Source: Antedon mediterranea
Taxonomy: Eukaryota > Animalia > Echinodermata
Direction: 5' to 3'
NCBI RefSeq assembly: GCF_964355755.1
Contig: NC_092673.1
Location: 19,155,648 to 19,219,647, forward strand
DNA length: 64,000 bases
The notes beneath the pieces are model-generated. The model worked only from the letters and a program-made list of their open reading frames with translations, ran no database searches and was not told the origin of the DNA. Positions 907 to 50,414 of the stretch are shown piece after piece (position 1 is the first letter of the stretch; each line of letters opens with the position of its first letter). A program made the translations under genes and the position numbers.

Positions 907-2672
907 CTTGTTCTGATCGATGCTTTCGTTTAATTTTCTTTGGGGATTTTTTATCACCTAAATGTGGATAAATTTGTAATACATTCAATGATACAAACAG
1001 GCCTATGTTTAAAGTAATTATTAATTAATAATTATAAAATCTCTTTTGCAAAAAATACATGTTAAAACAGATATGATAACAGTGTTCTTAAGGCCAATTT
1101 ACACAGACAAGCGGTAACGGTACAGTAAGTGGAAAACCATGTAGCTTGTCCATATAGAATCTGTATCTATCCTGAGTGGAAACCGCCCGTCCGTGTTGTG
1201 TGTAAATGGTCATAAAGAGTATCATAGATTCTATATTTTTTATTACCGTTACCGCTTGTCTGTGTAAATCGGCCTTAAAGCTGATAAAACTATTTATGTG
1301 TCCATAGATTTCCTTTGGGTATTTGTTGAGTTGTGATACAACAATATTGTTTAAATAATTGTGAGCAGTTCATTTTTTTTCATTATTGCCTACAGAACAT
1401 AGTGTTTATGAAATATAATAACATAATTTTTTGGTGATTGAGTAAAGGGTGCCTGAAATTCCTGATTTTAATTTCAAATATCAAAAATGTTTAAAAACGT
1501 AAAATTAACTTTTATATACAGTATTGCTTTTAAAAATAAATTTTAAAATTTGTATCGAATATAATTGAATAAATTAGAATTGTTGTACTGTACTGAAGTA
1601 AATAATTTTTGTTTAAAATAATTTGAGATTCTAATACTGAATAGTTCATAACAGTTTGTGTGTATTGATATATTACTATCTACATCATTACCAAAATAAA
1701 CATAACATACCTGGATTTGAACTTGCTGTCTCACCTTTAACAAAAAAAAAACCAATATTTCAATAAATGCTAGACAAATTACAGATTCTTCCTGGTAACA
1801 CTATAGCTATACTAGTGCAAAAGGATCAATGCTTATTTAAAAACGACAACAACATGAACTTTCAATTGGGAACAGTTAGCATATATATACTTACAAAACA
1901 CTTTCACTGGAGGAATATCATTTGACTCTTGTGAGAGTAAAAAGTTTGCCTTTAGAAGATTTGTTGATGTATTATTTCTGAAAAAATTAAATGTCCTTGA
2001 TGGGCTTTCACTCCATAGGTATTCAGCAGTGATAATCTAAAAATAAGAATATTTTTAGAAAGAAAAAGTACATATTACAGCTCGAAAGCAGAAAAGTATA
2101 AATAGTATGTTACCTAAATTATTGCTATTTTATTGTACTTGGTAGTTTTAGTGGCAATCAATCTTTGATCATACACTCATGAACAAGGTATGGATTCGAA
2201 GATAAGCCGTACAATTTAGACCAGATAGCGAGTTTGTCAAATGTTGCTTACAGAACAGTAGACACTTTGGCAATTGTGGGAAAGAAACAAAGAAAGACCG
2301 TTTTGTTTGTAAAGCAGAATCAAATCAGTCGTAGCTGACTGGATAACTACTGTAGGAGATCAATTGGATATAGCGGGAGATATTTTTCATTTATCTTTTA
2401 AACTACAGTATTAGTTTTACTGCAAGCATCTGTTTAATACATATTCTTGAGCCTCAAAAGCTTATACAAATATTATGATATCACAAATTGTGAAAAAACG
2501 TTTTTAGATTTAATTTAATAAAACAGAATGGACATACTTCTTTTTCATCTTCTACTTGCCATTCTTGGTTTGGAATCGCAACACTGATTCTAATGTCTTT
2601 ATACAAAGAAAGAATATTGTCAGGTGGTTGTAAAAGTTGCTCACCACATTGTTCGTGCTCTTTTTGTATCTT
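907..2672 (-). CDS. Module 2 UPA-like exons (2538-2672, 1895-2036), 24-nt micro-exon (1711-1734) and basic exon (907-957, GDKKSPKKIKRKHRSEQ)
   Basis: The 135- and 142-nt exons have the same lengths and phases as in module 1; canonical borders. Confidence 0.75.
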
Positions 2673-8600: not shown

Positions 8601-11600
8601 TATCAGTACCATGCCATCTGTTGTAATTAATACATGAACAGTAACTAAAATAATATGTAACCATTTAAAAAGATATTTACGCTATAATGAGTGTGTGGAT
8701 GGGACTCAAACCTCTCTAGACTACTGATCTCAGTGGTCTGGAGGTATATACGCAATGCTAGTAATCTGGAGGTCATGGGTTTGAGTCCAATCTGTGAAAT
8801 ACTTTTAAATTTGTTCGCAAAGTGTTCTCATTGAACTGAGTATACAGTGCAATTACGTCAGAATAAGACAAAACATCTGACCAACTAAATTATTCTCTTA
8901 ATCTTTCAACTCATTGAAAATGTTTTGTGCCAAATTTTGAACCATGAGTGAGAAACTTATAATCATAGCAGTACATCTAAGGACAATTTAAGCTATTGAA
9001 GTTGCACGCAATTATAAGAATTTGTATATTATATAATATATGATAAAATAAACGAATGAAATTCTTACTACAAGTCCACTACTGAAATACCATTTTAAAC
9101 ACAATATGTTACATTGAACCATACAACTCCTTATACGATTCTTAAACTCACCAATCACTGGTTTAAGCTTTGTTTTCTGTTCTTCAACCATTAGTTTCTC
9201 AAAGTGTTCACTAGCAAGACTTGGTAAATCTAAAAAATGTAACATACAAAATCTTTTACACATATTTTTCATAAAAAGAAATATTAAAAGACACAACTTG
9301 GCAAAAATTGTTAATGTTCATAATGCTACCATATAATAATAATTTCTCTATTTTTATACTGGTGTAGGTTACAAAGGCTGGTGAGGCTATGTCTGAATAT
9401 AGCCCGAGTGTCATTATCATATCTTGATCATCATCATGATATCATATTTTTATATATAACCTTTATCTACAATAATAGGCATTGTTACCCTCACTTATCA
9501 TCTAATCAATGAGATTTTATCTATGATTTTTATATAATATATATATATGTCTATTTTAAAAACAAGATATATATGAAATTTGTCTAATTTATATTTACCG
9601 TACTGACGCGGGTATAAGCCCACCCCCCTCAAACATGAAATCACGTCAAGTTTGGGGGGTGGGCTTATACCCGAGGATCCAAAAATGCAGATCGTCAAAA
9701 ACAGCACATGTACACTGTGTATTCCACCATGCGAGCGAACGCCCTCACGTGTACGACGTTGCCTCTAAACACGAGGTGTAGAGTGCCAGAAAATTAAGCT
9801 TATAGTTCGTGTAATTTATCGTAGAATATCTTATTTTAAACATCAATTGAACAAGAATTTATCAAGCAGAAAAGCAAGTATACAATGTTCGTTAAATAGA
9901 AATGTACCAAAGAAATTTAATAAGCTTGTTTATGGCAGCCGATACCAAATAGTGGTTTTCCGTTTTGGCGACTTGTAGCGTATCGTGTGTGAAGCGATCT
10001 TCGACCGCGATGGAGTGTTAACAAAACAGGACCGCTAGGCCTCATATGGCCTAGCGTGCGTATATTAGCCTAGCTTGGTTATGATCAAAAAGGTAGGTGT
10101 ATTCGGTGTATGGACGTCGCCAAATACAAAATAATGTATTACGACACACACTGTAGATCTTCGAATTAATGGGTGGGCTTATACCCGAGTGCCTCATTTT
10201 TCATGAAAATTAGTCAAAAGTCGGGGGTGGGCTTATACCCGAGTATGGGCTTATACCCACGTCAGTATATTTTAACATGGCACCTGTTCACACAATGATG
10301 TAAATTTATATTTTTATTTGTTTCAGCAAAATGTGGAGTGCTGAGGAGGGCCAAAGCAGAGAAAACACTACCACCAGGGAATAAAATTGTTCACTGTCTA
10401 CATTTAACTATGCTATGCTATATTTATTGTTGAAATCATTGTTTTCAGATAGATTTGTGAAACATTTTAATAACTTTCTATATCTATAATCAGCTTTAGA
10501 AATTCAACTACAGTACAACAAAACTACACACTTTATGTTTGTCTTAATAATCAGCATTATATTCTTTGTGTTAAAATATGATACTAATTATTAATGTTAG
10601 AGTAATATCATTCTCATTAACACCAACTTCTTTGTCATTATCATCTTGTTGATATCTTTATTTTAATTTTTATAATTCTTTGTTGTTGTTTGTTGTTTTG
10701 TCTTGTTGAGGGCCCATAATGGTAAATCCGTTTTTAAGAATATTCAAATAAAGAAAGGAGAAAGGACCCAAATGACACATTGATACATTTATAGAGACAA
10801 ATACAATAAAAGTAGTTTCTCCGTTGGTTAAGAGTTGGAAACTTGATAGTATTCCTGTTAATACGTTGTTAAAGATATGATTTTTGTTTTTTTTTTATTG
10901 GTAATCCGCACAGATTGAAAAAAAATGGATCGAATTTCTGTTATGGCTGTACTTGTCTTTACGACGCCTGAGGGAATAGAAACTTGTGGAACAGAGATTG
11001 GAATGTTCCATTTATCGCAGATCAATACATTTGTATAAACGTATATTAAATCTATCAAAATAGTATTTTTTAAAGAAACACTTCAACATTATGATGCTGT
11101 ACTCGAGCTGTTCAACCGGTTTTCAGCTATTAAAAACAATTATTGAGGAGGAGATAGGAAAATGCGAAGCATCCTCGTATTATTGTGTGTGGGTATTTAT
11201 TAAGATTGACATCTATTATACAGTGTATACCACAACCACGAAACACCCCTATTTGGGGCAAATCGTTGAACCTGAATTTGTTTTAATTGTCAATAACTAA
11301 TTATTTAACTCAATTTAATTAGTAAACAGGGTTACATCAGATGGTTAAAATGAGTACCGAAAGTACAAACCAACTTTATATACCATCGAGTATAAATTCT
11401 GGAAATAAACCGCGATTTATCGAATTTTGCCCTTACGTAAATTTATATATAGGTATAGGATCTTGCTAACGCGAATACAATAGCCGGTATCACAATCCGA
11501 TCAAAGATCCCTCTGCATATAATGTCATTAACCACATTGTTACATAATAATAAAGACATTACTTACTTTTTATCTAGATTTCATTTTAAATTATGTGTAT

Positions 11601-14600
11601 AATCTATACACTAAAAAATAAAATTGAACAAACAATATGGATAATAAAAAAAATCTTATTTCGTTTCCCAATGTGAGACTCGATCTCGGTACCTTGAATG
11701 CCATAGACACGAGCACAGACCACCGAGCCATACACAACTGACTAAAAGTTGTAGAAAGATTCCTCCGTGTATTTACTATGCAGCAACCACTTTGGCGCAG
11801 ATAGATTATTACATACCGCAATGAATTATAATTTTTTACTATGATGACATCTTTAAAAATGTTAAAAAATGATGCACTGTCAAACTATATACTTTTAACT
11901 TTAATATATGAACTTTTATTTTGAAAGAAGAAAGTTAAAGTTTGTTATTTCGGCCTAAGAAAATGTCATAATTTTTTGATTGTCGAAATAAATTTTTTTA
12001 AATTTAAAATGCAATTAATGACAACTTTTGTACTCTTAATTTCATAATAAATCATACATGATACATACACTTCAAGAAAATGAAATAAAAAATACGTGTT
12101 CCCGAGATTTCTGACGATCTATATTATTTTTAAAATTTAGCATATTTTCACCATTTTGTTAACTTACACGTGCGTAGCCTGTCACTCTTGACGTGCTCGT
12201 ATAACGCAAATTCGAGTTGAAAAGTGAATAAAATATGATGATATTATTAAAGAAAGGTTGTACGTGCGTGATCGCATGATAATGCATATAACCTAAAAAT
12301 CAACAATCAAGCAAAAATCAAGCAAGCATGCCACATAAATCTGCAAACTATAGCTTCATTCCATTATTACAGTATTTTAAATAGAAACAATCAACTGTTT
12401 GTTTTATTTATGATAATCTCTCCATTTGTTATTTGTTATCAGTTGCACACTTTTCGCCTTTTTACAGTACCGCTCAGAAATGTTTTTTTAATAACATTAG
12501 CGTCTAATTCTCTCTTTACTGAAATCCCATTTTAATCACAATTCTGTTAAATTATAATATAGATACAATCATAAAACATACAGCAGCTCTTATTCTTAAA
12601 CTCACCACTCTCTGGCTTAAGAAGTTTTGTTTTCTGTTTGTCACTTGTATGTTTCTGAAATTGTGTTTGAAATTGCTCATCAACAGTACTTGTTAAATCT
12701 AAAAAAATGCACAAAACAAAAATATGACATATTATATATTTTCATAAAAAACACTATATTAAAAGTCATAGCTTTTTTGTTTCAATGGTATAAGGTTATA
12801 TAAAGGCTCTGTGTGATACAAAGCCTTACAAACACTTGTGGGTGATTGTGTACAAGCAATCATTCATTCTGAATATACTATAATAATAATAATGTATATT
12901 TTTAACTACAATGTATACAGTTAACAACTACAGTTATTAATTATGTCCTAAAAAATGTGTGGAACTCAAACTCATCCAAACATATAGGCGTTATGCAACA
13001 TTTTTTGACAGAGATCCTGAATCTAAATCGTTTCTAGCAACATACGGTTGATTAGGATGGTTTCACTGTCTGTGTAAAGTGAAAATAAAGTAATCCTAAA
13101 ATGAATAACTGGTATGTTATTGACCACCTATCGTAAGTTTTTAATATGCCTTGAACTTTTTAAATGTTTTTATTTATATTCTGTTTTATGACCAGTAACC
13201 AATTTTGTTTTTATATCTGTGTGAAAACACAATAAAGATAACTTGAACTTGAGCCCACCATGGTTTGGGCTGAATTTTGCCAATATAGACCTGGAATTGC
13301 ATTTTTAAAGGCCTACAATAAGGGCACTGTTCTTTATACACTTGGTAGAGCTTGGTTATGCTTTGTGGGACTTGGTGTTTAGAATAACACATGTATGATG
13401 CTTAATTTTACATACAGAAAAATAGTATTCTTAAGCTGGCTTAAAAATGTGTGAAGAAAATTCATTCATTGTGGAAACAAAAAATGGGATTAACAAGAAA
13501 ATGTTTTATTTTTATATTCAATATTTATCGCCTCCTATCGTAAATTGTTTGCCTCGAATGCGAATGTGGGAAGGAGGAGTTTGAATTTGTCTATTGGTTT
13601 TACCCATAGTAAAAAAATTAGTAGATTTAAGTAGACTTAAGTAGAAATAGCTCTATTTTTAGTAGTTTTTTAGTAGACCTTTTTATCTCGCCTAATAAGG
13701 ATTTTAACTCAATGAGTCAACGATGGAACGACTACTTCCCAGCTATAAAATAGATAGTTGATTAATATTTAACTGGCTATTATCAGTTTCTTTATAGTCT
13801 ATTGATAGGTCATTGGTAGTCTTGTATAGCTATAATAAGGAGACAGTAGATAGATAGATATGATACTCATAGATTTCTAATAGCTATCTGGTAGTCCATA
13901 TCTATCTATTGTATAAAATAGATAGCTTATTAACAGTTACTGGCTATTATCAGTTTGTTTATGTCTATTAATAGGTTGCTGGTAGCCCATTGTATAGCTA
14001 TTATAAGTAGACAATAGATAGATGCATACAACTGTGTTACTCACAGATTGAAAATAGTGAAAAATCTATCTAACACTATTAGTGGGGGTTTTGAATTATG
14101 CTAATGAGGTAAAACCTATTAGGAACTATCTAAAATCTACCTAAATCTACTTATTAGTAGGTGTTTAATAGGTAATAGAGCTATATCTATTAAGGGGATA
14201 ACTTTTAAGGCGAATAGATATAGAGATATATCTACTAAGAACTTTTAATTAAGCGCCATCATTTACGGCAGTAACCTGGTACGCACGGCGCGCTGAAAAT
14301 CCGGTGATTCAGCTCCTCGAAGAAGACAAATTATTATTTAAAATGTTTGAAGGAAATTCATCCATTGTGGAAACAAAAACTGGGATTTAACAAGAAAATT
14401 AGATTTTTATATTCAATATTTATCTCCTCCTATCGTAAATTGTTTGCCTTGAATGCGAATACCAATTGTACATAGCATTATATATAAAATACATTACATT
14501 AAAAAAAAAATAATCTACATTTTACATTTATGTGCAATTAATAAAGTTCAAATATTCCTTAACAATGCATATCCCCCGTCCGATTATTGTAACTAGTTTA

Positions 14601-17600
14601 AAGTAAAGCCTCCTATCAAAAGCCCCTTGAGGTTTATTGAAGGTCCCTTTCATCTTAAAATCATCATCATCATGATTAAAATCTCTTTATTTTTGTTATG
14701 TGTACTGTTTTGATGTATTGAATAAAGAGATTGATTTGATTTGAAAAATGATTTATTTAATATTTTTATTTCAAAGGAATTTTAAAGTTTGCGTTTTTGT
14801 GTTATTTTTATCGTATTAATAGCAAAATAATTTACATCTTGCAACATATCACAACTTCCATGTATACTACTATCCCACTGAATTATTTAATCTATAATAA
14901 ACCTGTGAATGATATATCATAAATGTTAATTTTCTTTATCTGGACATTCTTCTTCACTTGATGAGAAATCAAATCTTTATCGTTTGCAATGAAACTAGTT
15001 GATCCTAAAATTTCAATAATTAAAACTTCAATTACCTTCTAAGAAGTTTAAAATTTCAGTTTTTCTTTGCTCCTCTATCCACCTGTTACTTTCTAAAAGA
15101 GAGACAAGTGTATTTCCATCCTATTAAAAAAATGGGTTTAGTTATTAGTAGTTTTGAGAAATTATTGATATACAATATAACACACTTTAATTGCGCATCA
15201 CATACATACAGTATTATGTCATGGCTCAAACATTTACCATCTAGAGATTGGATGAAAGAGCATCACGTGATAACACGTAGATTTACTATTTTTAACATTG
15301 GTTGTAAATTAGGACGTGAATAGAAATTAATATTTGCTAATAAATGACATCAACTTGTACAGTGCGCCACCTATAACTCCTGTATCCAAACCAAAACTTA
15401 AGCGCTGCCGTTTATAGTCTACCGCCTTCAACATTGAAAGATGGAGGAGAGAGAGAAAGAGATAAAAGTTTAATAAAAGTTTACTTTGGAACAGTAGGTA
15501 GATGTGTTAAAATGTTTGAGCCATAATATAAAACAACTAGAAAGCCACTCCGAGAGTGCATACCTCCGCCTACTGTAAAATTCTCCTACATAAGATTTCT
15601 CCGGTAAAAAAAAAAAAATATGTATATTTGTGTGTGTCTTAATGCTGTTTGTGATTTAGGCTAATTTCACTACAAGCATGTGTATGCGAGTTTGGTGTAA
15701 TGGTTATGTAACAAGCCTTTGAATTAACAATAGCTTCAGTTGACTAACAATAGAACAGCAACACGAAAATCAAACGAGTGAATTTGAAAAGAAAATGGGT
15801 TTTTTAAACTACTGGCATAAAAAAACGTGCACATTAAATCAAATTATGTTTTAAAATTACAAATCACGAATTATAACTCTTGCCTCTTGTACAAAAATGA
15901 AGTTTTTTGGACAAGTAGTTCTCGAGAAAATGCAATTTCAGTATACTTGTTACTTTAAGACTGCTCGCCGGCTTTTGAAAAATGTTGTCCTATCTTTTAA
16001 CACTAGCAGGTTTAAAAAAGTATACTAAAAAGTGGTCCAGAATTGGGACAATGGTCCCAAAATTTAATGGAATGGTCCTTGACTACATATCTATCTGTAT
16101 ATTCATTTTGGTAAAGATCTTGTAATTACATTTTGAGTAATCCTGCTAACAAACAAACACACGCTACCGATTACATATACCTCCTTGGCGGAGGTAAACA
16201 AATAGTTTTACTATAAACTTTCAAAGCAAATAATATTTGGATACTATCCAGAAACAAATGAAATATCCCTGTATAATCCCTGTACATTACCTTCTTTGCA
16301 ATGTTGCTGGTGTATAATACTGACAACAGACATTATGTGAAATTGGGTTTTTTTGGTCAACCCAAACCACAGCAACAATTACTGCTAAATAATGTGGTAA
16401 ATAATCATAAATGTCGACTATTGATAAATGAAAACAAAATATAATATCTTACCATGGATCAAATGTAGTATAGTGTCATTAAAATCTACTTACTGTACAA
16501 TATCAATCACAAAATTTGAACATTAATAATTTAATACATATTTTATAAAATTGTACAAACAAATGTTTAGATGTTAAACATAATGTATGAGGCCAATAAG
16601 CAGTTAAATGAATTTACATATAAATTTAGGTAATGGGAAATTTCAGTAAATTAAGTGCAACTTCTAGAATTTTTACTCAATGGTAGAGAAAGTTGGTACA
16701 TCCTTTCAGTACTGATTTTTAACACCCAATGAAACCAATATCATAATTAAGATAAGTTAGATATTAACGATAACAAATTTAGTTTAAACCATTTGCCTCA
16801 ATGAAAATCATATCATATCATGAAGCCTGATACCATCCCATCATCAAATGTACCAAGACAGGAATTTGGTGAACAATACCATGCAATAAACAAAATTAAG
16901 GTAATTCTCAGGATGACAATTATATTTGACTACATAAATTCCATCATATCTGTATTCATTTGCTTTGTGTACAGTGCAATTTTCAGTTATTTACCAAAGT
17001 TCATGTATTCAAGAAACATCTATGAGCACTTACTAGTATATTATATTTTAACAAGAAATCATTTTTCCAAAAAAGTCATAAGATAAGAGATGGAACTTTT
17101 CTTAAAAGCATTCAGTTTGAAAAGAATAATTTCATATTACCTTTCTTTTTAAATTGCATTACTCAAACAATTTAGATTTTGAAAACTAACAAAACATTGT
17201 GTACATTTCTCTTCATTTTGTGGCAAAATGTTTGCACAAAAAGATCCTAGGTTGGAAAAAGATCTCCAGATGTAGTTTAAGGCCATGTTTATAATTAGCT
17301 GGATAGAATGACAGAAGCATTTTTTTAAGGTAAGGGAGGGAACAGGTTATTAATTAATAATTATTTTTTATTAAAATCAGATTCTATTAATTTTTTTAAC
17401 ATAAACATTTTTAGTTGTTTAGTAGTTGTCGCATTTTATTTCATATTTACAATTAATTAGACCATTGTCAATAATTGTTAATTAATGACTGAATATATAA
17501 AAAAAAATAGATTTTTTTGTTCATTAAGAAAATTAAAGATTTATGTTATATGATAGGTAACTGTAAACTTTAAATCAGTTATCATAAATCATATATAACT

Positions 17601-20600
17601 ATTTAGTTATTTTTTTATTTGGTTTGTTTTAATAAAATTTGATTTTTGTTAATGTGCTTACTTTTTTCTCTCATTAAATGGTTTACGTCAGCAGATCTAT
17701 ATGATGTTAGCCTATTACACTAGCAAATCCCTGTACATTACCTTATTTTGCAATGCTACTGGTGCCCCATGCTGAATGAGACACGTCACTATTTCTAAGG
17801 TAGGCACAGTATATCCACTCCACAGATATGAATGTAATGGAGTGTTACCATCCTGGAAAGGAATCATAATCATGAATGTTTATAAATACTGACAACAGAC
17901 ATTATGTGAAATTGTTTTTTTTGTGTAAATACAAACAACAACAATTACTGCTAAATAATGTGATAAAATCCTAATTATCATTATTGATAAATGAAAACAA
18001 AATAGAATATATTACCATGGATCAGATCTAGTAATTGTTAGCCTATTACTTAATGTAAGTAATCATTAAAATCTACTTACTGTACAATATCAATCACAAA
18101 ATGTAAACATTAATAAAATACATATTTCATAAAATTGTACAAACAAATGTTTAGATGTTAACAATATGAGACCAATAAGCAGTTTAATGAATTTACATAT
18201 AAATTTAGGTAATGGGAAATTTCAGTAAATTAAGTGCAACTTCTAGAATTTATACTCAATGGTAGAGAAAGTTTGTACATACTTCCGGTACTGATTTTTA
18301 ACACCTAATGAAAATCAGTGTACTATAAATGTACATAAATACAAAAAAACCAACACAAATACAAAAAAAATGCACAAAATTGCCCAAGAATACATGGTTT
18401 GATCGTCAATGCATAAAAAAGAAAATTATTATTCGTAGCATTCTTAATAAATATAGAAAATACAAAACTAACACCCTATTAAATGAATATCTGTTAAAGA
18501 AAAGGAGTTATAAAAAATTAATAAAATTAAAAAAAAATAAACATAAAAATTCATCACAACAAAAATTAATCAGGTTAATAAAGGAACATAACAGTACAAA
18601 ATTTTGGAAAAACCTTAAAACCAAACGACAACAAAACGTAACAAACATTACACTTAAAAAATGGCATGATTACTTCAAAACTATGTTCCAAAATCAAACA
18701 AATAATATACAAGAAATCAATATAGAAGACGATAACGATAACAATTGCGAACATAACGATTGTTACAATGAAGAAATCAGCCGGGAAGAGGTAATTTATG
18801 CAATTAAAGCACAGAAAAGGAGTAAAGCTCCAGGTATTGATGGATTCCCAATTGATTTTTTTACTTGTATCCCAAATGCTGCTATTAGCGCAATTACGAA
18901 CATTTTTAATAGTATTTTTACCTCTGGAAATTTTCCCCAACAATGGGCAACAAGCATTATTATTCCTATATTTCAAAAGCGTAAAAGAGATCAACCAGCA
19001 AATTATAGAGGCGTATCCTTAATATCCACTTTAGGCAAGGTGTTTTTAAACATTATAAGCAATAGATTAAGCAAATGGACAGAAGAAAATGAAATATTAC
19101 ATCAAGAACAGGGAAGGTTTAGAAAAGATTGTCGTACTATTGATAAAATATTTATTTTAGACACAATTGTTAACAAATATCTCTCAAAAAAACGAGGAAC
19201 TGTGTACATGGCGTTTATAGATTTAAAACGCGCTTTCGATTCTATTAGACACGATTTCCTTATAAGTAAACTAAGAAAATCTGGTATAAAAGGTAAAATA
19301 ATCAAAGTTATAAAAACAATGTATAGTAAACTAAAAGGGCATGTAAAGGTTGGCAACAAAATTGGAGAATCCTTTAAATGTGAAGTAGGAATACAACAAG
19401 GGTCACCTTTATCTTCATTATTATTTAATATTTTTATTAATGATATAACTGATTTATTACATACTGCTGAAAATCGAAACAAAATAAAAATTAATAACAT
19501 AAATATTAATCACCTACTGTATGCAGATGATCTAGTTTTAATCAGTGATACAGTGTACTCATTACAAGATCTTTTAAATAAATTAGCATATAACTATTGT
19601 AATAATAGGTGGGGATTGGTAGTTAACATTGACAAAAGTAAAATAATAGTATTTTAAAAAAATGGAAAACTTAAGAACTACGAAAAGTGGAATTAACTTG
19701 GTAAAGAAATTGAAATAGTAAAATCTCTTAAATATCTTGGAGTCACTTTCGATTGTTCAGGAATTTGGGAAAAGGCCAGAGAACAAAATAATACACAGGC
19801 TAATAAAGCACTTTTCTCACTCAAAAATATAGTATATCAGAAATATGGACATTTACTAGTGAATATTTGGAACTACTTATTTGATGTTAAAATAAACCCA
19901 ATTATACTGTATGGTAGTGAAATATGGGGAAAACTAAACAACAACAAAATTGATGATATTCAAAATAATTTCTGTAGATATGTTTTAGGGGTCGGGAAAT
20001 CAGCCACAAATGTTTCAATTAGAGGAGAATGTAGACGATTCTCTTTATCAATCGAAGGTGTACTCAATGTTATCCGTTATTGGGTAAGACTAGTAAATAT
20101 GAACGAGGACAGATATGCGAAGAAATGTTATAAATCTCAACTTCATAAAGCGCAAAATAATAGTAATTGTTGGGTAAGCGATGTAAAACATATGTTATGC
20201 TCTATTGGTCATGGAAACATATGGTTTTCACAAAATAATGTCCTTGATAAATTTCATATAATTAATAAAAATAAAAGAAAGGCTAACCGATATGGAACGC
20301 CAATCCTTTCATGAAAGCATAAATATTTCTTCAAAATTAAGATATTATAAAATGTTCAAAAACAATTTCGGAGTAGATGGATACTTACTACAGACCCTTG
20401 ATACTAGATATAAGCGAGCTTTAAGTCAACTAAGACTGGGCACACTTCAACTAGAGGTAGAAAAGGGAATATGGAAAAGAATAGAGCGCAACAATAGGTT
20501 ATGTAAAATATGTGATATAAATGAAGTTGAAGGTGAATATCATTTTGTTACAGTTTGCTCTCGTTACAAGGAAATCAGAAAAAAATTTATACCTTCTTTA

Positions 20601-23600
20601 TTTTTTGAAAATCCAAATACTTTTAAATTCTGCCGTTTAATTTCATCACAGGATCCAATAATTATTGATAATCTATCTAAATATATTTATCATGCTTATA
20701 AGTTAAGATATATGTTTTGCTTAGAGAACGAAATTAATTAATTCATTTATCCTGCGACCATAAATTGCTTTATTTTTCAATGTAATTATTATTTTATTAA
20801 TTACTAGGGGCCAGAGGCCTAAAGTAAATAAAGTAAGGCGATAAGCCTGAATGAATGAATGAATGAATGAATGAATGAATGAATGAATGAATGAATATTG
20901 ACGATCAAAACAAATTTATCATTTGCCTCGATGAAGATCAAAAAATGTTTGCACAAAAAGATCCTAGGTTGGAAAAGGATCTCCAGATGTAGTTTAAGGC
21001 CATGTTTATAATTAGCTAGATAGACTGACAGAAGCATTTTTTTTGTAAGATAAGGGAAGGAGCACATTATTAATTAATAATCATTATTAATTAAAAATCA
21101 TTTTTTTATTAAAATCAGATTCTATTAATTTTTGTTTAGTAGTTGTCCCATTTTATTTCATATTTACAATTAATTAGACCATTATCAATAATTGTTAATT
21201 AATAGCTGAATATACAAAAAAAATAGATTTTATTGTTCATTAAGAAAATTAAAGATTTATGTTATATGATAGGTATAATATATATAAATATATAACTATT
21301 TAGTTATTTTTTTATTTTGTTTGTTTTAATAAAATTTGATTGTTGTTTATAATGTACTTACTTTTTTCTCTCATTAAATGGTCTACTTCAGCAGATCTAT
21401 ATAATGTTAGCTTATTACACTAGCAAATCCCTGTACATTTACCTTATTTTGCAATGCTACTGGTGCCCCATGCTGAATGAGACACGTCACTATTTCTAAG
21501 GTAGGTGTATATTCATTCCTCAGATAGTCATGTAATATAGTGTTACCATCCTAGAAAGGAATCATAATGAAGTTTATAAATACTGACAACAGACATTATG
21601 TGAAATTGGGTTTTTTTTTTGTAAATACAAACAACAATTACTGCTAAATAATGTGATAAAATATTAATTATCATTATTGATAAATGAAAACAAAATATAA
21701 TATATTACCATGGATCAGATCTAGTGATTGTTAGCCTATTACTTAATGTAAGTAATCATTAAAATCTGAGAAAGTTGGTAAATACTTTCAGTACTGATTT
21801 TTAACACACAATGAAACCAATATCATAATTAAGCTAAGTTAGATATTAACGATAACAAATTTAGTTTAAACCATTTGCCTTAATGAAAATCATATCATGA
21901 AGTCTGATACCATCCCATAATAAAATGTACCAAGACAGGAATTTGGTGAACAATACCATGTAATAAACAAAATTAAGGTAATTCTCCGGATGACAATTAT
22001 ATTTGACTACATAAATTCCAACATATCTGTATTCATTTGCTTTGTGTACAGTGCGACTTAAGACAATTTCAGTTATTTACCAAGGTTCATGTATTCGAGA
22101 ACCATCTGTGGGCACTTACTAGTATATCACATTTTAACTGGCAACTTTATAGAATCATTTTTTCCAAAAAGTCATAAGATAAGATACGGCACTGTTTGAA
22201 AAGAATAATTTCATGTTAAATTTCTTTTTCCAATTGCATTGCTCAAACATTTTTAGATTTTGGAAACCACTATAAACTAAACATTATTTACATTTCTATT
22301 CCATTTGTGGCAAAATGTTTGCAAAAAAAAATGCTGGAAAAGGATCTCTTTAAGGCCATATTCAAACTGTAATTAGCTGGATATACTGACAGAAGTATTT
22401 TTTGTAAGGTAAGGGAAGGAGCAGGTTATTAACACTAACTAATTCTTTTTTATTAAAATCAGATTCTATTAATTTTGTTAACAATAACACAAACATTTTT
22501 GTTTGCTATTTAATTATTTGTCAACATACATTTTATTTCATATTTATAATTAATTAGACCATTTTCAATTGTTATTTACTTTACAGCTACATATTGAGCA
22601 ATATATATTTATTTTATGGTAAAAAGTATTTAAACAAAATTATACTGATTCACCTGAATATAAAAAATTACAAGTAGATTGTTTTTGTTCATTAAGAAAA
22701 AAATAAATGTTATTTGATGGATAACTGTATACTTTAAATCAGTTATCATAAATCATATATAACTGTTTAGTTATTACAGTATTTTAATTTGATTTTTTGA
22801 TTTTTGTTAATGTGCTTACTTTTTTCTCTCATTGAATGGTTTACTTCAGCAGATCTATATAATGTTAGCTTATTACACTAGCAAATCCCTGTACATTACC
22901 TTATTTTGCCATGCTACTGGTGCCCCATGCTGAATGAGACAAGTCACTATTTCTAAGGTAGGAGCAGTATCTCTATGAGTATATCCACCCCACAGATACA
23001 TATGTAATGGAGTGTTACCATCCTGGAAAGGAATCATAATCATGAAGTTTATAAATACTGACAACAGACATTATGTGAAATTGTTTGTTTTTTGTCAATA
23101 CAAACAACAACAATTGCTGCTAAATATTGTGGTAAATAATCATAATTATCATTATTAATAAATGAGTAGAACAAAATAGAATGGTTTACCACAGCATATC
23201 TATAGAATGTTAGCCTATTACACTAGCAAATCCCTGTACATTTACCTTATTTTGCAATGCTACTGGTGCCCCATGCTGAATGAGACAAGTCACTATTTCT
23301 AAGGTAGGTACAGTATATCCACTCCTCAGATATGAATGTAATGGAGTGTTACCATACTGGAAAGGAATCACAATGAAGTTTATAAATACTGACAACAGAC
23401 ATTATGTGAAATTGTTTGTTTTTTGCTGCTGTAAATAACAACAATTGCTGCTAAATAATGTGATAAAATCCTAATTATCATTATTAATAAATGAAAACAA
23501 AATATAATATATTACCATGGATCAGATCTAGTAATCGTTAGCCTATTACTTAATGTAAGTAATCATTAAAATCTACTTACTGTACAATATCAATCACAAA

Positions 23601-26600
23601 ATGTAAACATTAATAAAATACATATTTCATAAAATTGTACAAACAAATGTTTAGATGTTAACAATATGAGACCAATAAGCAGTTTAATGAATTTACATAT
23701 AAATTTAGGTAATGGGAAATTTCAGTAAATTAGGTGCAACTTCTAGAATTTATACTCAATGGTAGAGAAAGTTTGTACATACTTCCGGTACTGATTTTTA
23801 ACACCTAATGAAAATCAGTGTACTATAAATGTACATAAATACAAAAAAACAAACACAAATACAAAAAAATTGCACAAAATTGCCCAAGAATACATGGTTT
23901 GATCGTCAATGCATAACAACAACAAATTATTATTCGTAGCATTCTTAATAAATATAGAAAATACAAAACTAACACCCTATTAAATGAATATCTGTTAAAG
24001 AAAAGGAGTTATAAAAAATTAATAAAATTTAAAAAAAAATAAACATAAAAATTCATCACAACAAAAATTAATCAGGTTAATAAAGGAACATAACAGTACA
24101 AAATTTTGGAAAAACCTTAAATCCAAACGACAACAAAATGTGACAAACATTACACTTAAAAAATGGCATGATTACTTCAAAACAATGTTCCAAAATCAAA
24201 CAAATAATATACAAGAAATCAATATAGAAGACGATAACGATAACAATTGCGAACATAACGATTGTTACAATGAAGAAATCAGCCGGGAAGAGGTAATTTA
24301 TGCAATTAAAGTTAACATTGACAAAAGTAAAATAATAGTATTTTTAAAAAATGGAAAACTTAAGAACTACGAAAAGTGGAATTAACTTGGTAAAGAAATT
24401 GAAATAGTAAAATCTCTTAATTATCTTGGAGTCACTTTCGATTGTTCAGGAATTTGGGAAAAGGCCAGAGAACAAAATAATACACAGGCTAATAAAGCAC
24501 TTTTCTCACTCAAAAATATAGTATATCAGAAATATGGACATTTACTAGTGAATATTTGGAACTACTTATTTGATGTTAAAATAAACCCAATTATACTGTA
24601 TGGTAGTGAAATATTGGGAAAACTAAACAACAACAAAATTGATGATATTCAAAATAATTTCTGTAGATATGTTTTAGGGGTCGGGAAATCAGCCACAAAT
24701 GTTTCAATTAGAGGCGAATGTAGACGATTCTCTTTATCAATCGAAGGTGTACTCAATGTTATCCGTTATTGGGTAAGACTAGTAAATATGAACGAGGACA
24801 GATATGTGAAGAAATGTTATAAATCTCAACTTCATAAAGCGCAAAATAATAGTAATTGTTGGGTAAGCGATGTAAAACATATGTTATGCTCTATTGGTCA
24901 TGGAAACATATGGTTTTCACAAAATAATGTCCTTGATAAATTTCATATAATTAATGAAATAAAAGAAAGGCTAACCGATATGGAACGCCAATCCTTTCAT
25001 GAAAGCATAAATATTTCTTCAAAATTAAGATATTATAAAATGTTCAAAAACAATTTCGGAGTAGATGGATACTTACTACAGACCCTTGATACTAGATATA
25101 AGCGAGCTTTAAGTCAACTAAGACTGGGCACACTTCAACTAGAGGTAGAAAAGGGAATATGGAAAAGAATAGAGCGCAACAATAGGTTATGTAAAATATG
25201 TGATATAAATGAAGTTGAAGGTGAATATCATTTTGTTACAGTTTGCTCTCGTTACAAGGAAATCAGAAAAAAATTTATACCTTCTTTATTTTTTGAAAAT
25301 CCAAATACTTTTAAATTCTGCCGTTTAATTTCATCACAGGATCCAATAATTATTGATAATCTATCTAAATATATTTATCATGCTTATAAGTTAAGATATA
25401 TGTTTTGCTTAGAGAACGAAATTAATTAATTCATTTATCTTGTGACCATAAATTGCTTTATTTTTCAATGTAATTATTATTTTATTAATTACTAGGGGCC
25501 AGAGGCCTAAAGTAAATAAAGTCAGGCGATAAGCCTGAATGAATAAATGAATGAATGAATGAATATTGACGATCAAAACAAATTTATCATTTGCCTTGAT
25601 GAAGATCAAAAAATGTTTGCACAAAAAGATCCTAGGTTGGAAAAGGATCTCCAGATGTAGTTTAAGGCGATGTTTATAATTAGCTAGATAGACTGACAGA
25701 AGAATTTTTTTTGTAAGATAAAGGAAGGAGCACATTATTAATTAATAATCATTATTAATTAATAATCATTTTTTATTAAAATCAGATTCTATTAATTTTT
25801 GTTTAGTAGTTGTCCCATTTTATTTCATATTTACAATTAATTAGACCATTATCAATAATTGTTAATTAATAACTGAATATATAAAAAAAATAGATTTTAT
25901 TGTTCATTAAGAAAATTAAAGATTTATGTTATATGATAGGTAACTGTACACTTTAAATCAGATCATAAATCATATATAACTATTTAGTTATTTTTTTATT
26001 TGGTTTGTTTTAATAAAATTTGATTTTTGTTAATGTGCTTACTTTTTTCTCTCATTAAATGGTCTATTTCAGCAGATCTATATAATGTTAGCTTATTACA
26101 CTAGCAAATCCCTGTACATTTACCTTATTTTGCAATGCTACTGGTGCCCCATGCTGAATGAGACACGTCAGTATTTCTAAGGTAGGTGTTGTATATTCAT
26201 TCCTCAGATATGAATGTAATAGAGTGTCACCATACTGGAAAGGAATCATAATGAAGTTTATAAATACTGACAATAGAAATTATGTAAAATTGGTTTTCTG
26301 TTGTTAATACAAACAACAACAATTACTGCTAAATAATGTGATAAAATCCTAATTATCATTATTGATAAATGAAAACAAAATATAATATCTTACCATGGAT
26401 CAGATGTAGTGATTGTTAGCCTATTACTTAATGTAAGTAATCATTAAAATCTACTTACTGTACAATATCAATCACAAAATTTGAATATTAATAAAATACA
26501 TATTTTATAAAATTGTACAAACAAATGTTTAGATGTTAAACATAATGTATGAGGCCAATAAGCAGTTAAATGAATTTACATATAAATTTAGGTAATGGGA

Positions 26601-29600
26601 AATTTCAGTAAATTAAGTGCAACTTCTAGAATTTTTACTCAATGGTAGAGAAAGTTGGTACATCCTTTTAGTACTGATTTTTAACACCCAATGAAACCAA
26701 TGTCATAATTAAGCTAATTTAGATATTAACGATAACAAATTTAGTTTAAACAATATTGCCTCAATGAAAATCATATCATATCATGAAGACTAATATCATG
26801 CCATCATCAAATATACCAAGACAGGAATTTGGTGAACAATACCATGCAATAAACAAAATTAAGGTAATTCTCAGGATGACAATTATATTTGAATACATAA
26901 ATTCTAACATATCTGTATTCATTTGCTTTGTGTACAGTGCAATTTTCAGTTATTTACCAAAGTTCATGTATTCAAGAAGCATCTGTGAGCACTTACTAGT
27001 ATATTATATTTTAACGAGAATTAATTTTTTCAACAAAGTCATAAGATAAAAGACGGAACTTTTCTTAAAAGCATTCAGTTTGAAAAGAATAATTTCATAT
27101 TACCTTTCTTTTTTAAATTGCATTACTCAAACAATTTAGATTTTGAAAACTAACAAAACATTGTGTACATTTCTCTTCATTTTGTGGCAAATGTTTGCAC
27201 AAAAAGATCCTAGGTTGGAAAAGGATTTCTTTAAGGCCATGTTCATAATTAGCTGGATAGACTGACAGAAGCATTTTTTGTAAGGTAAGGGAGGGAGCAG
27301 GTTTTTAATTAATAATCATTTTTTATTAAAATCAGATTCTATTAATTTTTTTAACATAAACATTTTTAGTTGTTTACTAGTTGTCCCATTCTATTTCATA
27401 TTTACAATTAATTAGACCATTGTCAATAACTGTTAATTAATAACTGAATATATATAAAAAAATAGATTTTTTTGTTCATTAAGAAAATTAAAGATTGATG
27501 TTATGTGATAGGTAACTGTACACTTTAAATCAGTTATCATAAATCATATATAACTATTTGGTTTGTTTTAATCAAATTTGATTTTTGTTAATGTGCTTAC
27601 TTTTTTCTCTCATTAAATGGTTTACTTCAGCAGATCTATAGAAAGTTAGCTAATTACACTAGCAAATCCCTGTACATTTACCTTATTTTGCAATGCTAAT
27701 GGTGCCCCATGCTGAATGAGACACGTCACTATTTCTAAGGTAGGTGCAGTACTCCTCAAATATGAATGTAATGGAGTGTCACCATACTGGAAAGGAATCA
27801 TAATCATGAATGTTTATAAATACTGACAACAGACATTATGTGAAATTGGTTTTTTTTTTGTTAATATTGTACAAACAACAATTATTGCTAAATAATGTGA
27901 TAAAATTCTAATTATCATTATTGATAAATGAAAACAAAATATAATATATTACCATGGATCAGATGTAGTAATTGTTAGCCCATTACTTAATGTAAGTAAT
28001 CATTAAAATCTACTTACTGTACAATATCAATCACAAAATTTGAACATTAATAAAATACATATTTCATAAAATTGTACAAACAAATGTTTAGATGTTAACA
28101 ATATGAGACCAATAAGCAGTTAAATGAATTTATATATAAATTTAGGTAATGGGAAATTTCAGTAAATTAAGTGCAACTTCTAGAATTTATACTCAATGGT
28201 AGAGAAAGTTGGTACATACTTTCGGTACTGATTTTTAACACCCAATGAAACCAATATCATTTAAGTTAAGTTAGATATTAACGATAACAAATTTAGTTTA
28301 AACCATTTGCCTCAATGAAAATCATATCATATCATGAAGCCTGATACCATCCCATCATCAAATGTACCAAGACAGGAATTTGGTGAACAATACCATGTAA
28401 TAAACAAAATGAAGGTAATTCTCAGGATGACAATTATATTTGACTACATAAATTCCATCATATCTGTATTCATTTGCTTTTTGTACAGTGCAATTTTCAG
28501 TTATTTACCAAAGTTTATGTATTCAAAAAGCATCTGTGAGCACTTACTAGTATATTATATTTTAACAAGAAATAATTTTTCCAAAAAAGTCATAAGATAA
28601 AGAGACGGAACTTTTCTTAAAAGCATTCAGTTTGAAAAGAATAATTTCATATTACCTTTCTTTTTAAATTGCATTACTCAAACAATTTAGATTTTGAAAA
28701 CTAACAAAACATTGTGTACATTTCTCTTCATTTTGTGGCAAAATGTTTGCACAAAAAGATCCTAGGTTGGAAAAGGATCTCCAGATGTAGTTTAAGGCCA
28801 TGTTTATAATTAGCTGGATAGAATGACAGAAGCATTTTTTTAAGGTAAGGGAGGGAGCAGGTTATTAATTAATAATTATTTTTTATTAAAATCAGATTCT
28901 ATTAATTTTTTTAACATAAACATTTTTAGTTGTTTAGTAGTTGTCGCATTTTATTTCATATTTACAATTAATTAGACCATTGTCAATAATTGTTAATTAA
29001 TGACTGAATATATAAAAAAAAATAGATTTTTTTGTTCATTAAGAAAATTAAAGATTTATGTTATATGATAGGTAACTGTACACTTTAAATCAGTTATCAT
29101 AAATCATATATAACTATTTAGTTAATTTTTTATTTGGTTTGTTTTAATAAAATTTGATTTTTGTTAATGTGCTTACTTTTTTCTCTCATTAAATGGTTTA
29201 CTTCAGCAGATCTATAGAATGTTAGCCTATTACACTAGCAAATCCCTGTACATTTACCTTATTTTGCAATGCTACTGGTGCCCCATGCTGAATGAGACAC
29301 GTCACTATTTCTAAGGTAGGTGTATATCCACTCCACAGATATGAATGTAATGGAGTGTTACCATGCTGGAAGGGAATCATAATGAAGTTTATAAATACTG
29401 ACAACAGACATTATGTGAAATTGGGTTTTTTGACAATACAAACAACAACAATTAATGCTAAATAAAGTGGTAAATAATCATAATTAACATTATTAATAAA
29501 TGAGTAGAACAAAATAGAATGGTTTACCACAGCATATCTATAGAATGTTAGCCTATTACACTAGCAAATCCCTGTACATTACCATATTTTGCAATGCTAC

Positions 29601-32600
29601 TGGTGCCCCATGCTGAATGAGACACGTCACTATTTCTAAGGTAGGTTGTGTATATTCAATCCTCAGATATGAATGTAATGGAGTGTCACCATACTGGAAA
29701 GGAAAGCATTTTTTTGTAAGGTAAGAGAGGGAGCAGGTTATTAATTAATAATTATTTGTTATTAAAATCAGATTCTATTAATTTTGTGTAACATAAACCT
29801 TTTTTATTTGTTATTTTATTATTAATCAATGTAGTCCCATTTTATTTCATCTTTACAATTAATTAGACCATTGTCAATCATTGTTATCTTTACAGCTACA
29901 TATGAGCAATTTATATTTGTTTTACGGTCAAAAATAGTTAAACAAAATTATACCGATTCACCTGAATATAAAAAATTACAAGTACTGATTTTTAACACCC
30001 AATGAAACCAATATCATAATTAAGTTAAGTTAGATATTAACGATAACAAATTTAATTTAAACCATTTGCCTTGATGAAAATCATATCATATCATGAAGCC
30101 TGATACCATCCCATCATCAAATGTACCAAGACAGGAATTTGGTGAACAATACCATGTAATAAACAAAATGAAGGTAATTCTCAGGATGACAATTATATTT
30201 GACTACATAAATTCCAACATATCTGTATTTATTTGCTTTGTGTACAGTGCAACTTAGACAATTTTCAGTTATTTACTGAAGTTTATTTATTCGAGAACCA
30301 TTAATTACCAGTATATCAAATTTTAACTGGCAACTTTAATAGAATCATTTTTTCCAAAAAGTCATAAGATACAGTAAGATACGGCACTGTTTGAAAAGAA
30401 TAATTTCATATTAAATTTCTTTTTGAAATTGCATTGCTCAAACATTTTTACTAAACTAAACATTTTTCTTCCTTTTGTGCAAAATGTTTGTTTGGAAAAG
30501 GATCTCTTTAAACCCATCTGTATGTGATAAGACTGACAGAAGTATTTTGTTGTAAAGTAAGTAAAGGGCAGGAGCAGGTTATTAACAATTAATAATCCTT
30601 TTTTATTGAAATCAGATTCTATTTATAACATAAACATGTTTTAATTTGTTATTTTATTAATAGTCAATGTAGTTGTCCCATTTTATTTCGTATTTACAAT
30701 TAATTAGACCATTGTCAATCGTTATCTTTGAAGTACATACAGTAATAATGAGCACTTTATATTTGTTTTACGGTCATAAAAATGTAAACAACATTGTAGG
30801 TTTCTATTAGGCGTCATGTCCAAATGTTTCAAACTGACAAAGCGTGTTAATCGCGTTTTCTTTTGTTTTAGCGTTAGCGTGAAAATTCTAAAATCGTCAG
30901 ACCGTTTGGAAAATGGACAATATGCATAGCTTGTATAGTTCCGCCCACTAACATGCTTGACTGATTTTTACGAATCGTTTAACGTCGTTGCGAATCGCTT
31001 TGTGAACGTCGTTTAACGATGAGTCATCACACACAGGCCCAAACAATTCGTTTCAGTTTGTAGCTGAATTGTATTCCAGGGGTGCCGATCTCAAACATCA
31101 TTCTAAAATGTTTACAAGTTCGTAACCTCAATAAATAATTTAATATTAATAATAAACAGGGGCCTGGAATGTTTTTCTTTTACATAGCCAACTGAAAATA
31201 TCGTTAGGAAGTTCATACGATGAACTAAGCACCTGAGACAATAGCAACACGATGTGCCACGTAGTCTCACTTCTAAATGCATTAGCGAACGTCTACAGTA
31301 GCCGATCGATAAAAAAAAAGGTCTTCTAAAAATAGCAGCAGTGAATGCTCGGCCGACCGTCGGTGTTCGCGCGCTCATAGATTGCAGGCCGATAACATAA
31401 GTTAAACAAGTACCTAGATGTTGGTCACGCGATATCCTCTTTCTCCTCCTGTTCACAGCGCTCACATGTTTTTACTTCAAATTCTGCCGGTCGGTAATCT
31501 TATTTAGATCGTTGAAAAGATGACTGATCATTAATTTAATTCATTTAATGTTTGATTCTATTTTTGTGCTTTATTTTATTTTGTTTATCTTTATAAATTT
31601 GATTTATTTTAATTTAATTTTTATTGTTATATATGTCTCGTCATATTGTAATTTTGTGAGGGTCCCTAATGATCAGCTTCGGCTGGATGGACCACCCTCG
31701 TAAAATATTCTTGAAAATAAATATATAAATCATTGGCTATTTTTCCGTTGCACAAGGGCCTAGTTGTATTAATAATAATAATTATTATACTTATTAAACA
31801 AGGAATATATTGATTTTGTATTTATTTTGTGAAGGCTTTTGAACTTTGTCGTCGCTGTATTTTTAAATTTGTTAACTAAGTTAGAATTTACTAGCATAAT
31901 ATAATACTGTAAAACCAGACACTTTTGTGACATAAAACTTTCGCAAATTTGAAAAGTACAAGTAAATAACTGTATACTGTAAAAAAAAGATCGCGTTAAT
32001 CCATTGTGGATGCGATCTTCGTATATATCGAACATCCGTCGATCCAGAAACGATGCCCACAAAAAAGATGGTAAAACATTCATTCTAAATATGGTATCAA
32101 AACGTTCAAGTCGCTCAAAAAGAATGCCGACAGAAGACCGTAATTAATACAGACCTGGGTTTTTTGGCATGAAACGCGATACTACTCGATGTTTTACCTC
32201 AACCTCTAACATGATATTTTTTAACTCAGTACGTCCATTAGAGGGTGGTGGATGCTGTGCTGACGACAATAAAACAGTAATTAAGATCGTGTACCTGCAT
32301 TTCCTCTATTTATATCTAAACTGTTCCCAGACTCCGATCCACTCGCATGTTTTTCCCACTCCAAATTCTGGTCTGGCCTTTCTCTTTACACAATATATTA
32401 ATCATTTAAAAGGCCTATGACTGGTAAATCTTAACATGGAATATATATTTATTTTGCTTATATTTTGTTGGTGTTCTAGCCTAGGTGTTGTTATTTTTAT
32501 AATTCGCTAACCCAAGGTAGGATTAAATAATTTATAGTGTAGGCCGCCGACCTGAACTCTCTCTGTGTGAGCTGACTGAGGTCCACGGGCCCGATGTCGT

Positions 32601-37836: not shown

Positions 37837-37994
37837 TTCAAAAATACAGTGTGTTCATTTAACAATTATTAATACGGATAGCTTCTAGTGTAAAAGTAAG
37901 CCTACACATTCTGTTCTGAAAATATGAAAGGTAAAACATAATTTCATCAGACAGAAACCTTTGCATTAAAGGCTACGACAATTCAATTGCACCG

Positions 37995-50345: not shown

Positions 50346-50414
50346 TTGCCTATTTTGAAGGGAAAATAGTCCAGGACTACACTTCATTTAATTTGAGCAT
50401 AAAATAGCCTAAGC

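Follow-up and report, generated by a model that had tools for sequence, protein, structure and literature searches.

The locus and its predicted gene

The stretch of DNA analyzed here, a 64-kb window from the crinoid (feather star) Antedon mediterranea, carries eight tandem ankyrin (ANK) exons on its minus strand, referred to as R1 to R8. They form part of a predicted gene of 22 exons that spans 37 kb with an intact frame and intact splice sites; its 989 codons in the window are free of stops, and canonical AG/GT signals are found at every internal junction (Table 1). The predicted protein has about 1,174 amino acids, the last 185 of which lie beyond the window, and its predicted layout is an N-cap, eight ankyrin repeats, a C-cap, linkers, two successive ZU5-UPA units, and a tandem DED-like tail. 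A previous reading of this DNA, made from the sequence only, had described tandem ankyrin exons of 35, 36, 37, and 41 codons, and this was borne out: all eight possess an AG acceptor and a GT donor, are of phase 0-0, and contain no stop. Four exons were scanned with Pfam, of which three passed the Ank cut-off and R4 fell just below it.

As each repeat is a single phase-0 exon, units can be gained, lost, or swapped without disturbing the reading frame. The repeats are near-identical (73-97%, with a mean column identity of 81%), and 10 of the 33 ungapped positions vary. The exon alignment agrees with the sequence-only reading in showing only four single changes within the last 21 residues (V>L twice, L>W, and K>M), and in placing the variation at exon positions 1, 3, 5, 8, and 11-13 and in the length of the loop. 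Its count of about four synonymous variable sites also holds, as the codon table contains two in the 33 ungapped codons and a further two to three in the gapped loop. All exon indels are multiples of three, as it had stated, compared with 4 of the 14 intron gaps.

Proteins retrieved in our searches are designated by P numbers. The translation of the gene model equals the RefSeq protein P0001 (XP_071947400.1) from ZU5-1 onward, with the ZU5 stretch at 7724-8263 giving an exact match to a segment of that protein. For the front of the gene, the translated start matches the N-termini of paralogs P0012, P0013, P0018, and P0019, and the N-cap exon, like the repeats, is unlike its paralog counterparts where helix 1 ends. 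By eye, linker exon 1 is also similar to the linkers of P0014 and P0168. Joints of the kind required between the two halves of the gene occur in paralogs, with the C-cap joined to the linker in P0014 and the linker joined to ZU5 in P0002, and the array is likely joined to ZU5 in one gene. Counting against such a join, P0001 begins at ZU5-1 and has no ankyrin part, the eight-repeat array is absent from the database proteins searched, and no read links ANK to ZU5 at the locus.

The start of P0001 at ZU5-1 would also fit an arrangement in which expression of the ZU5-UPA-DED gene does not include the array, the latter being a silent young pseudogene or a separate ankyrin protein in its own right. 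The same could be said of the paralog models that are ANK-only (P0012, P0013, P0018, and P0029) or linker-first (P0002 and P0168), of introns full of long interspersed nuclear elements (LINEs) and minisatellites, and of the one relic exon described below. We judge this arrangement to be quite unlikely, given that frame and splice sites have stayed intact over 37 kb, that caps and linkers follow one another in order, and that the joints in question are present in P0014 and P0002; the fragmentary paralog models probably arose where annotation was interrupted at repetitive exons.

Inspection of both the gene model and P0001 revealed neither a signal peptide nor a membrane helix, and the predicted protein starts with a charged ankyrin cap. 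The product is therefore likely to be a cytosolic protein, and neither a surface receptor nor the allorecognition receptor suggested as a possibility in the initial description of the array is supported. Within the back half of the gene, a 127-bp tandem duplication at 2645-2900 covers the acceptor and first bases of a UPA-2 exon and creates an extra upstream AG which, if used, would change the frame.

Table 1. Exons of the predicted gene and insertions within its introns, with positions in the window
Feature	Position	Strand	Description
Start-codon exon (coding part), predicted	37829..37836	-	ATG at 37836, GT donor, in-frame join to N-cap
Ankyrin N-cap exon	37486..37585	-	AG/GT, 100 nt, phase 2 to 0; like paralog N-caps
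ANK exon R1	29583..29693	-	111 nt, 37 codons
ANK exon R2	29258..29365	-	108 nt, 36 codons; Pfam Ank E 3.5e-6
ANK exon R3	27682..27786	-	105 nt, 35 codons
ANK exon R4	26124..26234	-	111 nt, 37 codons; Pfam Ank E 0.002, under cut-off
LINE retrotransposon, second copy, R4-R5 intron	23830..25564 (start approximate)	+	Same LINE as in R7-R8 intron; reverse transcriptase core deleted; TGAA tail
ANK exon R5	23246..23356	-	111 nt, 37 codons
ANK exon R6	22900..23022	-	123 nt, 41 codons (longest loop); Pfam Ank E 1.7e-5
ANK exon R7	21443..21550	-	108 nt, 36 codons
LINE retrotransposon, R7-R8 intron	18329..20896	+	RVT_1 Pfam E 2.6e-34; reverse transcriptase frameshifted; TGAA-repeat tail
ANK exon R8	17742..17852	-	111 nt, 37 codons; Pfam Ank E 4e-6
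Relic ninth ANK exon	16292..16310 (ends approximate)	-	Unit homology stops at 16310 (self-BLAST)
Ankyrin C-cap exon	15036..15120	-	AG/GT; 24/28 residues match P0014 C-cap
Linker exon 1	12606..12698	-	AG/GT, phase 1-1; homologous to P0002 linker
Linker exon 2	9152..9229	-	AG/GT, phase 1-1; in frame into ZU5-1
ZU5-1 and start of UPA-1	7718..8244	-	Pfam ZU5 E 1.8e-20; identical to P0001
Rest of UPA-1	4732..7357 (exons 7357-7223, 5123-4982, 4761-4732)	-	AG/GT; translation equals P0001
ZU5-2 and start of UPA-2	3295..3824	-	Pfam ZU5 E 1.4e-18
Rest of UPA-2 and start of linker to tandem DED-like tail	907..2672 (exons 2672-2538, 2036-1895, 1734-1711, 957-907)	-	Translation equals P0001

Variation, duplication, and inferred selection in the array

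The variable residues had been proposed to lie on the ligand-binding face of the repeat, and alignment to the chains of designed ankyrin repeat proteins (DARPins) together with a model of paralog P0012 places them there. Exon positions 1, 3, 5, 8, 11, and 12 correspond to repeat positions 3, 5, 7, 10, 13, and 14 in that alignment, and we take position 14 to have been randomized in the original DARPin library. A published library randomizes positions 2, 3, 5, 10, 13, and 33, described there as the concave binding surface (PMC4308713); general ankyrin geometry was taken from PMC8229355. Five of the seven library positions vary in the array, with 2 and 33 almost invariant, and the structural proline of the TPLH motif, at repeat position 7, is variable as well. 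Length variation falls in the loop between helix 1 and helix 2, beside positions 13-14, and not in the beta-hairpin. The AlphaFold model of P0012, with a predicted local distance difference test score (pLDDT) of 87.5, shows a regular DARPin-like ankyrin stack in which the long helix 1-helix 2 loop is less certain (block mean of 68), and its best fold matches are the ARMS ankyrin domain and DARPins, at a template modeling (TM) score of about 0.8.

Self-BLAST of the window shows that the copied unit is a whole exon plus its intron, in pieces 76-96% alike; the introns between repeats, 0.2-3.6 kb in length, were duplicated along with the exons. One two-exon block, R4-R5, is matched by R7-R8 at 96% identity with a LINE inside, and this marks a recent block duplication, as the two LINE copies differ at just 9 of 1,220 nucleotides in their 3' part. 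A relic ninth exon keeps only its last ~19 nucleotides and its donor, the acceptor and most of the exon being deleted. Trees of the upstream and downstream flanks of six units (R1 and R5 were excluded on account of their short downstream introns) mutually reject each other by the approximately unbiased (AU) test, with p=0.002 and 0.0003, and the units are therefore mosaic, with break positions located at the exons or close to them. Two results on short alignments speak against recombination, as a PHI-like test (p=0.52) and a single-tree simulation (p=0.10) both gave no signal. Of the 35 residues of R3, 33 are shared with one repeat of P0014, a paralog bearing Roc, and no other repeat in the array is as close to R3; this hints at either exchange between genes or a recent common origin. 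False duplication by the assembly was rejected, since the unit flanks differ by 1-18% and carry distinct indels, and no inverted exon copies were seen in the window.

Selection was assessed by counting tests on the eight exons plus paralog proteins, using the 33 ungapped codons. At repeat positions 2, 3, 5, 10, 13, 14, and 33 there are 14 non-synonymous changes per 18.0 sites, in excess of both the synonymous changes (2 per 22.8 sites, p=0.0004) and the changes in flanking introns (79 per 374 sites, p=1e-4), and the other 26 codons contain 5 non-synonymous changes per 58.2 sites. When the two three-base changes at position 10 are treated as single events, the excess persists at p=0.007 against synonymous sites and p=0.008 against introns. 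Limiting the face to the six positions of PMC4308713 with conservative counting gives p=0.026 against synonymous sites. Within the youngest block, differences are found at 7 of 42 nucleotides in face codons, 3 of 156 in other codons, and 70 of 2,937 in the flanks (p=6e-5, or 0.003 counted conservatively; 0.003 and 0.04, respectively, against introns alone). When six repeats of the three nearest paralogs are pooled with the eight of the array (14 in total), entropy averages 1.18 bits at face positions versus 0.21 bits elsewhere (p=0.001). We infer that new binding specificities have been selected for and that this has driven the face excess.

Several points temper this conclusion. The counts are small, with just two synonymous changes, and the conservative count on the six PMC4308713 positions is not significant against introns (p=0.054). 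The scaffold changes at the same rate as synonymous sites (5/58 versus 2/23), and the signal of purifying selection on the scaffold relative to introns is weak (p=0.02). Multi-base changes could also have been imported from paralogs via gene conversion. Of the earlier proposal of a fixed scaffold with a hypervariable binding face under diversifying selection, the excess at the face over synonymous sites and introns thus stands, while constraint on the scaffold relative to synonymous sites is not apparent.

These same features bear on an explanation without adaptive diversification, in which concerted evolution, through conversion or unequal crossing-over, homogenizes the 3' half of the exons and the 5' half and loop are relaxed, mutation-prone, or supplied with short tracts by diverged paralogs. 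Variation in the 3' half is low even at synonymous sites (synonymous and non-synonymous diversity, piS and piN, of 0.029 and 0.021), the equal scaffold and synonymous rates and the nearness of R3 to a paralog repeat would be expected under such a process, the two three-base changes within one codon resemble imports, and surface positions of ankyrin repeats are established to be tolerant of change. Relaxation nevertheless predicts a neutral rate, and the face exceeds the synonymous and intron rates several-fold; moreover, 15 of the 16 changes in the 5' half are non-synonymous, unlike neutral imported tracts. The confinement of exon indels to in-frame lengths, which is not shared by the intron gaps, argues in the same direction, and import from paralogs would still leave variation restricted to the face throughout the family. 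We therefore regard concerted evolution alone as an unlikely account of the array.

Repetitive DNA is also found around the array. The intron between the N-cap and R1 contains, at 33170-37346, a 71-bp minisatellite of ~37 copies in three blocks, interrupted by two insertions, and further minisatellites lie upstream of the gene at 37991-38487 (31-bp unit), 43626-47011 (89 bp), 47913-48487 (85 bp), and 49815-50346 (18 bp), the last of which is open in several frames in a way that looks incidental. A short element of very high copy number at ~15500-16200 has a contig depth some hundredfold that of neighboring bins in all four sequencing runs. An 840-bp element, likely a non-autonomous transposon, occurs in opposite orientations at 11441-12263 and 53427-54267 with 91% identity. 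Open reading frames of 139 and 119 codons at 5565-5984 and 62712-63071, both on the plus strand, have no Pfam match; the latter lies in a GC-richer region that may be a fragmented transposon gene.

Signaling modules, paralogs, and proposed role

The ZU5 domains of the predicted protein end in motifs associated with self-cleavage. ZU5-2 has an HFS motif at 3435-3427, a predicted site of the PIDD1 type, and ZU5-1 has an SFT motif at 7861-7853, a predicted site of the CARD8/NLRP1 SF/S type. According to PMC3210808 and PMC9162469, PIDD1 is self-cleaved at HF/S following each of its ZU5 domains, and in CARD8 and NLRP1 the cut falls at SF/S; Ser, Cys, or Thr acts as the nucleophile, and the Phe of the motif corresponds to a Leu in UNC5B. 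ZU5-2 aligns to the ZU5-UPA of UNC5B with an E value of 8e-12 and has Phe opposite that Leu, and HF[S/C/T] is found in all nine paralog records (seven clusters). Conservation restricted to residues that can serve as the nucleophile is good indirect evidence for the predicted self-cleavage. The tail of the protein resembles a tandem DED: its Atlas model has a TM score of 0.77 to the tandem DED of caspase-10 and of 0.69-0.70 to FLIP, and its top feature matches are DED clusters at 0.89-0.90. Some findings detract from these assignments, in that Asn occupies the place of the nucleophile in the truncated ZU5 remnant with which P0005 begins, the tail matches Pfam DED at an E value of 4e-4, under the curated cut-off, and the AlphaFold model of P0001 (pLDDT of 48.6) is too poor for placing the cleavage site. 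The NLRP1/CARD8 FIIND is among the fold matches of this low-confidence model.

A profile of the eight exons matched 12 proteins, eight of them named A. mediterranea and four generic ankyrin proteins. A representative search added three further Antedon proteins, three of its unassigned matches having been looked up and all three found to be from Antedon. Fourteen of the retrieved proteins are clustered on one record of 36.19 Mb. Among 158 other retrieved proteins, a strict pattern search detected no repeat of the family, a result that is uninformative, as P0029 and P0039 were missed as well. The same type of repeat with caps precedes Roc-COR-DED in P0011 and P0015, Roc-COR in P0016, two Roc-COR units in P0019, and, together with the linker, Roc in P0014. 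Roc and COR are thus present in P0011, P0015, P0016, and P0019, and also in P0168, a Roc-COR protein that ends in the same DED-like tail (68% identical). This sharing of modules across paralogs indicates that sensor, middle module, and tail recombine within the family, which likely pairs variable sensors with two signaling bodies. Marine invertebrates, including echinoderms, are noted in PMC8195603 to have expanded sets of DED proteins that carry ankyrins or ZU5-UPA.

Two other observations concern the wider family. P0031, located on another record, carries a more distant array of near-identical ankyrin repeats on a Roc body that is variable just past TPLH, and suggests that the array design arose or diverged repeatedly in this genome. 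P0003, P0007, and P0019 end in hydrophobic stretches resembling membrane anchors, and part of the family may be membrane-tethered.

Reads from other samples provide a partial view of copy number and splicing. In run X8, from a second organism, 107 contigs matched one exon at 80% likeness, and the summed contig depth, which is not itself a copy number, suggests many copies of the family; run X9, from organism C, had no contigs on the exon, a result that carries no weight. Run X5, also from another sample and with contigs matched at the same likeness, is probably RNA, although this is a guess and no run is recorded as RNA. Across the constant portion of the exon its depth is ~1,750-2,600, compared with ~250 in the flank, whereas depth in X1 and X8 remains high past the donor. 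Head-to-tail exon joints, at depths of 31 and 17, are found in X5 alone among the four runs, as listed, and loose ends in X5 read like the start of the following repeat exon. These data point to splicing from one repeat to the next in family members; the inference extends to the family and not to the locus itself. On the other side, X5 covers introns too, its joints may derive from paralogs given the 80% likeness, and one of the two begins with a base found in none of the eight exons. No exon-exon joint was present among the 15 of 231 joints listed for the four runs over 12400-31000. Of the words of 7200-8300, X5 contains a share of 0.55, close to the 0.56 of 31-mers that are wholly exonic, and this comparison is not counted as evidence. 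Variant letters present in X5 and absent from X1 (e.g., at 17811 and 17825) were considered as polymorphism and rejected, as they mix alleles and paralogs.

Taking the locus and the family together, the array is probably (at about 0.6) the part that provides variable recognition in a cytosolic sensor of immunity or cell death that resembles PIDD1/CARD8 and would extend from the N-cap to the tandem DED. In such a sensor, the protein would cut itself at HF/S, and possibly at SF/T, at the end of each ZU5, with the fragments remaining associated. Once a foreign or altered-self ligand bound in the groove of the ankyrin repeats, the UPA-DED-DED fragment would be released, polymerize, and recruit a DED caspase. 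The suggestion of a variable innate-immune receptor is in this respect retained, as the ZU5-UPA with its self-cleavage motif, the tandem DED, and the ROCO paralogs point to immune or cell-death signaling, and its allorecognition component is dropped. A more far-reaching version, in which crinoids possess combinatorial intracellular receptors forming a natural DARPin library, with exons exchanged inside and among clustered genes and variably spliced, every subset staying in frame, onto a self-cleaving ZU5-UPA-DED or a Roc-COR-DED body to give a basal echinoderm repertoires specific to individuals or cells, is a speculative possibility.

A non-immune role would be conceivable if the protein were an ankyrin-type adaptor, or a receptor in some other arms race (in development, gametes, or symbiosis), with ZU5-UPA and the death fold acting as an uncut scaffold like those of ankyrin-B or UNC5. 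On sequence and fold, the back half is matched best by UNC5B, ZO-1, and ankyrin-1/2/3, and canonical ankyrins likewise combine ankyrin repeats with a following ZU5, UPA, and death fold. The order of domains is unlike theirs, as ZU5-UPA occurs twice and is followed by a tandem DED, and E values against ankyrin-1/2/3 are only 0.05-0.8, with ankyrin-B marginal at 0.05. UNC5B has Leu-Gly where the present family keeps Phe-Ser/Cys/Thr, and the expansion and clustering of the family also weigh against an adaptor, making this role improbable next to that of a self-cleaving immune or cell-death sensor.

Comparison with known systems

A comparison of the predicted protein with canonical ankyrins (ANK1-3) and UNC5 shows that they share ZU5, UPA, and a death fold, and in the former case ankyrin repeats, with UNC5B giving the strongest PDB match to ZU5-UPA. 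Canonical ankyrins possess 24 diverged repeats followed by ZU5-ZU5-UPA and one death domain. In contrast, the protein predicted here has eight near-identical repeats with caps, two ZU5-UPA units before a tandem DED-like tail, a retained nucleophile motif, and no extracellular part. Pfam detects ZU5 twice in P0001 and neither Roc, COR, NACHT, nor NB-ARC, and the 417-residue front part, which consists of caps, repeats, and short linkers, likewise supplies neither Roc-COR nor a NACHT or NB-ARC ATPase to the same chain. Judged by predicted domain content, the family is not one of ROCO proteins, NOD-like receptors (NLRs), or canonical ankyrins.

PIDD1 is single-copy. Compared with PIDD1-type proteins, the present family has an ankyrin sensor, a ZU5-UPA-ZU5-UPA order, a tandem DED-like tail, and an expanded and diversifying membership, and its cleavage is predicted. 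PIDD1, CARD8, and NLRP1 share with it an N-terminal sensor, [H/S]-F-[S/T] at the end of ZU5, and a UPA followed by a death fold; in the predicted protein, ZU5-UPA likewise precedes the death fold and a [H/S]-F-[S/T/C] motif ends each ZU5. PIDD1 (leucine-rich repeat (LRR)-ZU5-ZU5-UPA-DD) additionally has two ZU5 domains with the motif at the equivalent place, and the FIIND of CARD8 and NLRP1 is a ZU5-UPA followed by CARD (PMC9162469, PMC3210808).

The repeat design itself had been put forward as possibly undescribed, and this did not stand, as brown-algal ROCO and NB-ARC-tetratricopeptide repeat (TPR) receptors and fungal NLRs are parallels built on other repeats. The LRR-ROCO and NB-ARC-TPR candidate immune receptors of Ectocarpus share with this family one repeat per exon, the gain, loss, and exchange of repeats, inactivated exon remnants within introns, a concave face under diversifying selection, paralogs arranged in clusters, and Roc-COR bodies within the family (PMC3341825, PMC11378527). 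At the present locus, all eight exons are of symmetrical phase, duplication, loss, and recombination are seen (the latter with the two negative tests noted above), and counting tests for diversifying selection on the face give p=6e-5 to 0.04, with one variant at 0.054. The differences are that Ectocarpus uses LRR or TPR rather than ankyrin repeats, and that here the host is a deuterostome and ZU5-UPA with a tandem DED replaces the nucleotide-binding domain. The fungal HNWD/HET-E WD40 and NACHT-ANK NLRs share near-identical repeats with few hypervariable positions, a pattern of high internal conservation that the array also displays, as well as concerted evolution, likely repeat exchange between genes, and coupling to cell-death domains; they differ in that the family described here lacks NACHT/NB-ARC, has its sensor at the N-terminus, and separates its repeats by introns (PMC13449251). 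No description of an ankyrin cassette family of this design was found in the literature searched, which comprised titles and the openings of abstracts and included few subscription journals.

Hypervariable sensors with one repeat per exon are known from brown algae, and those of fungi, to the extent covered by the accessible text, apparently have no introns between repeats. That an ankyrin version occurs in a deuterostome, coupled both to a self-cleaving module of the inflammasome type and to ROCO GTPases, suggests a renewed origin of this strategy in animals. The immune genes of crinoids have been little studied, and this family provides a set of concrete candidate sensors, one that is easily overlooked because current annotation splits such genes.

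DARPins account for most of the top fold matches, and they share with the array the N-cap, internal repeats on a constant scaffold, the C-cap, and variation at positions 3, 5, 10, 13, and 14. In contrast to DARPins, the array is natural, keeps positions 2 and 33 nearly fixed, allows Pro 7 to vary, and has a helix 1-helix 2 loop that is two to eight residues longer and variable in length. For protein design, the family represents an ankyrin library from nature in which a loop kept fixed in the designed ones varies.

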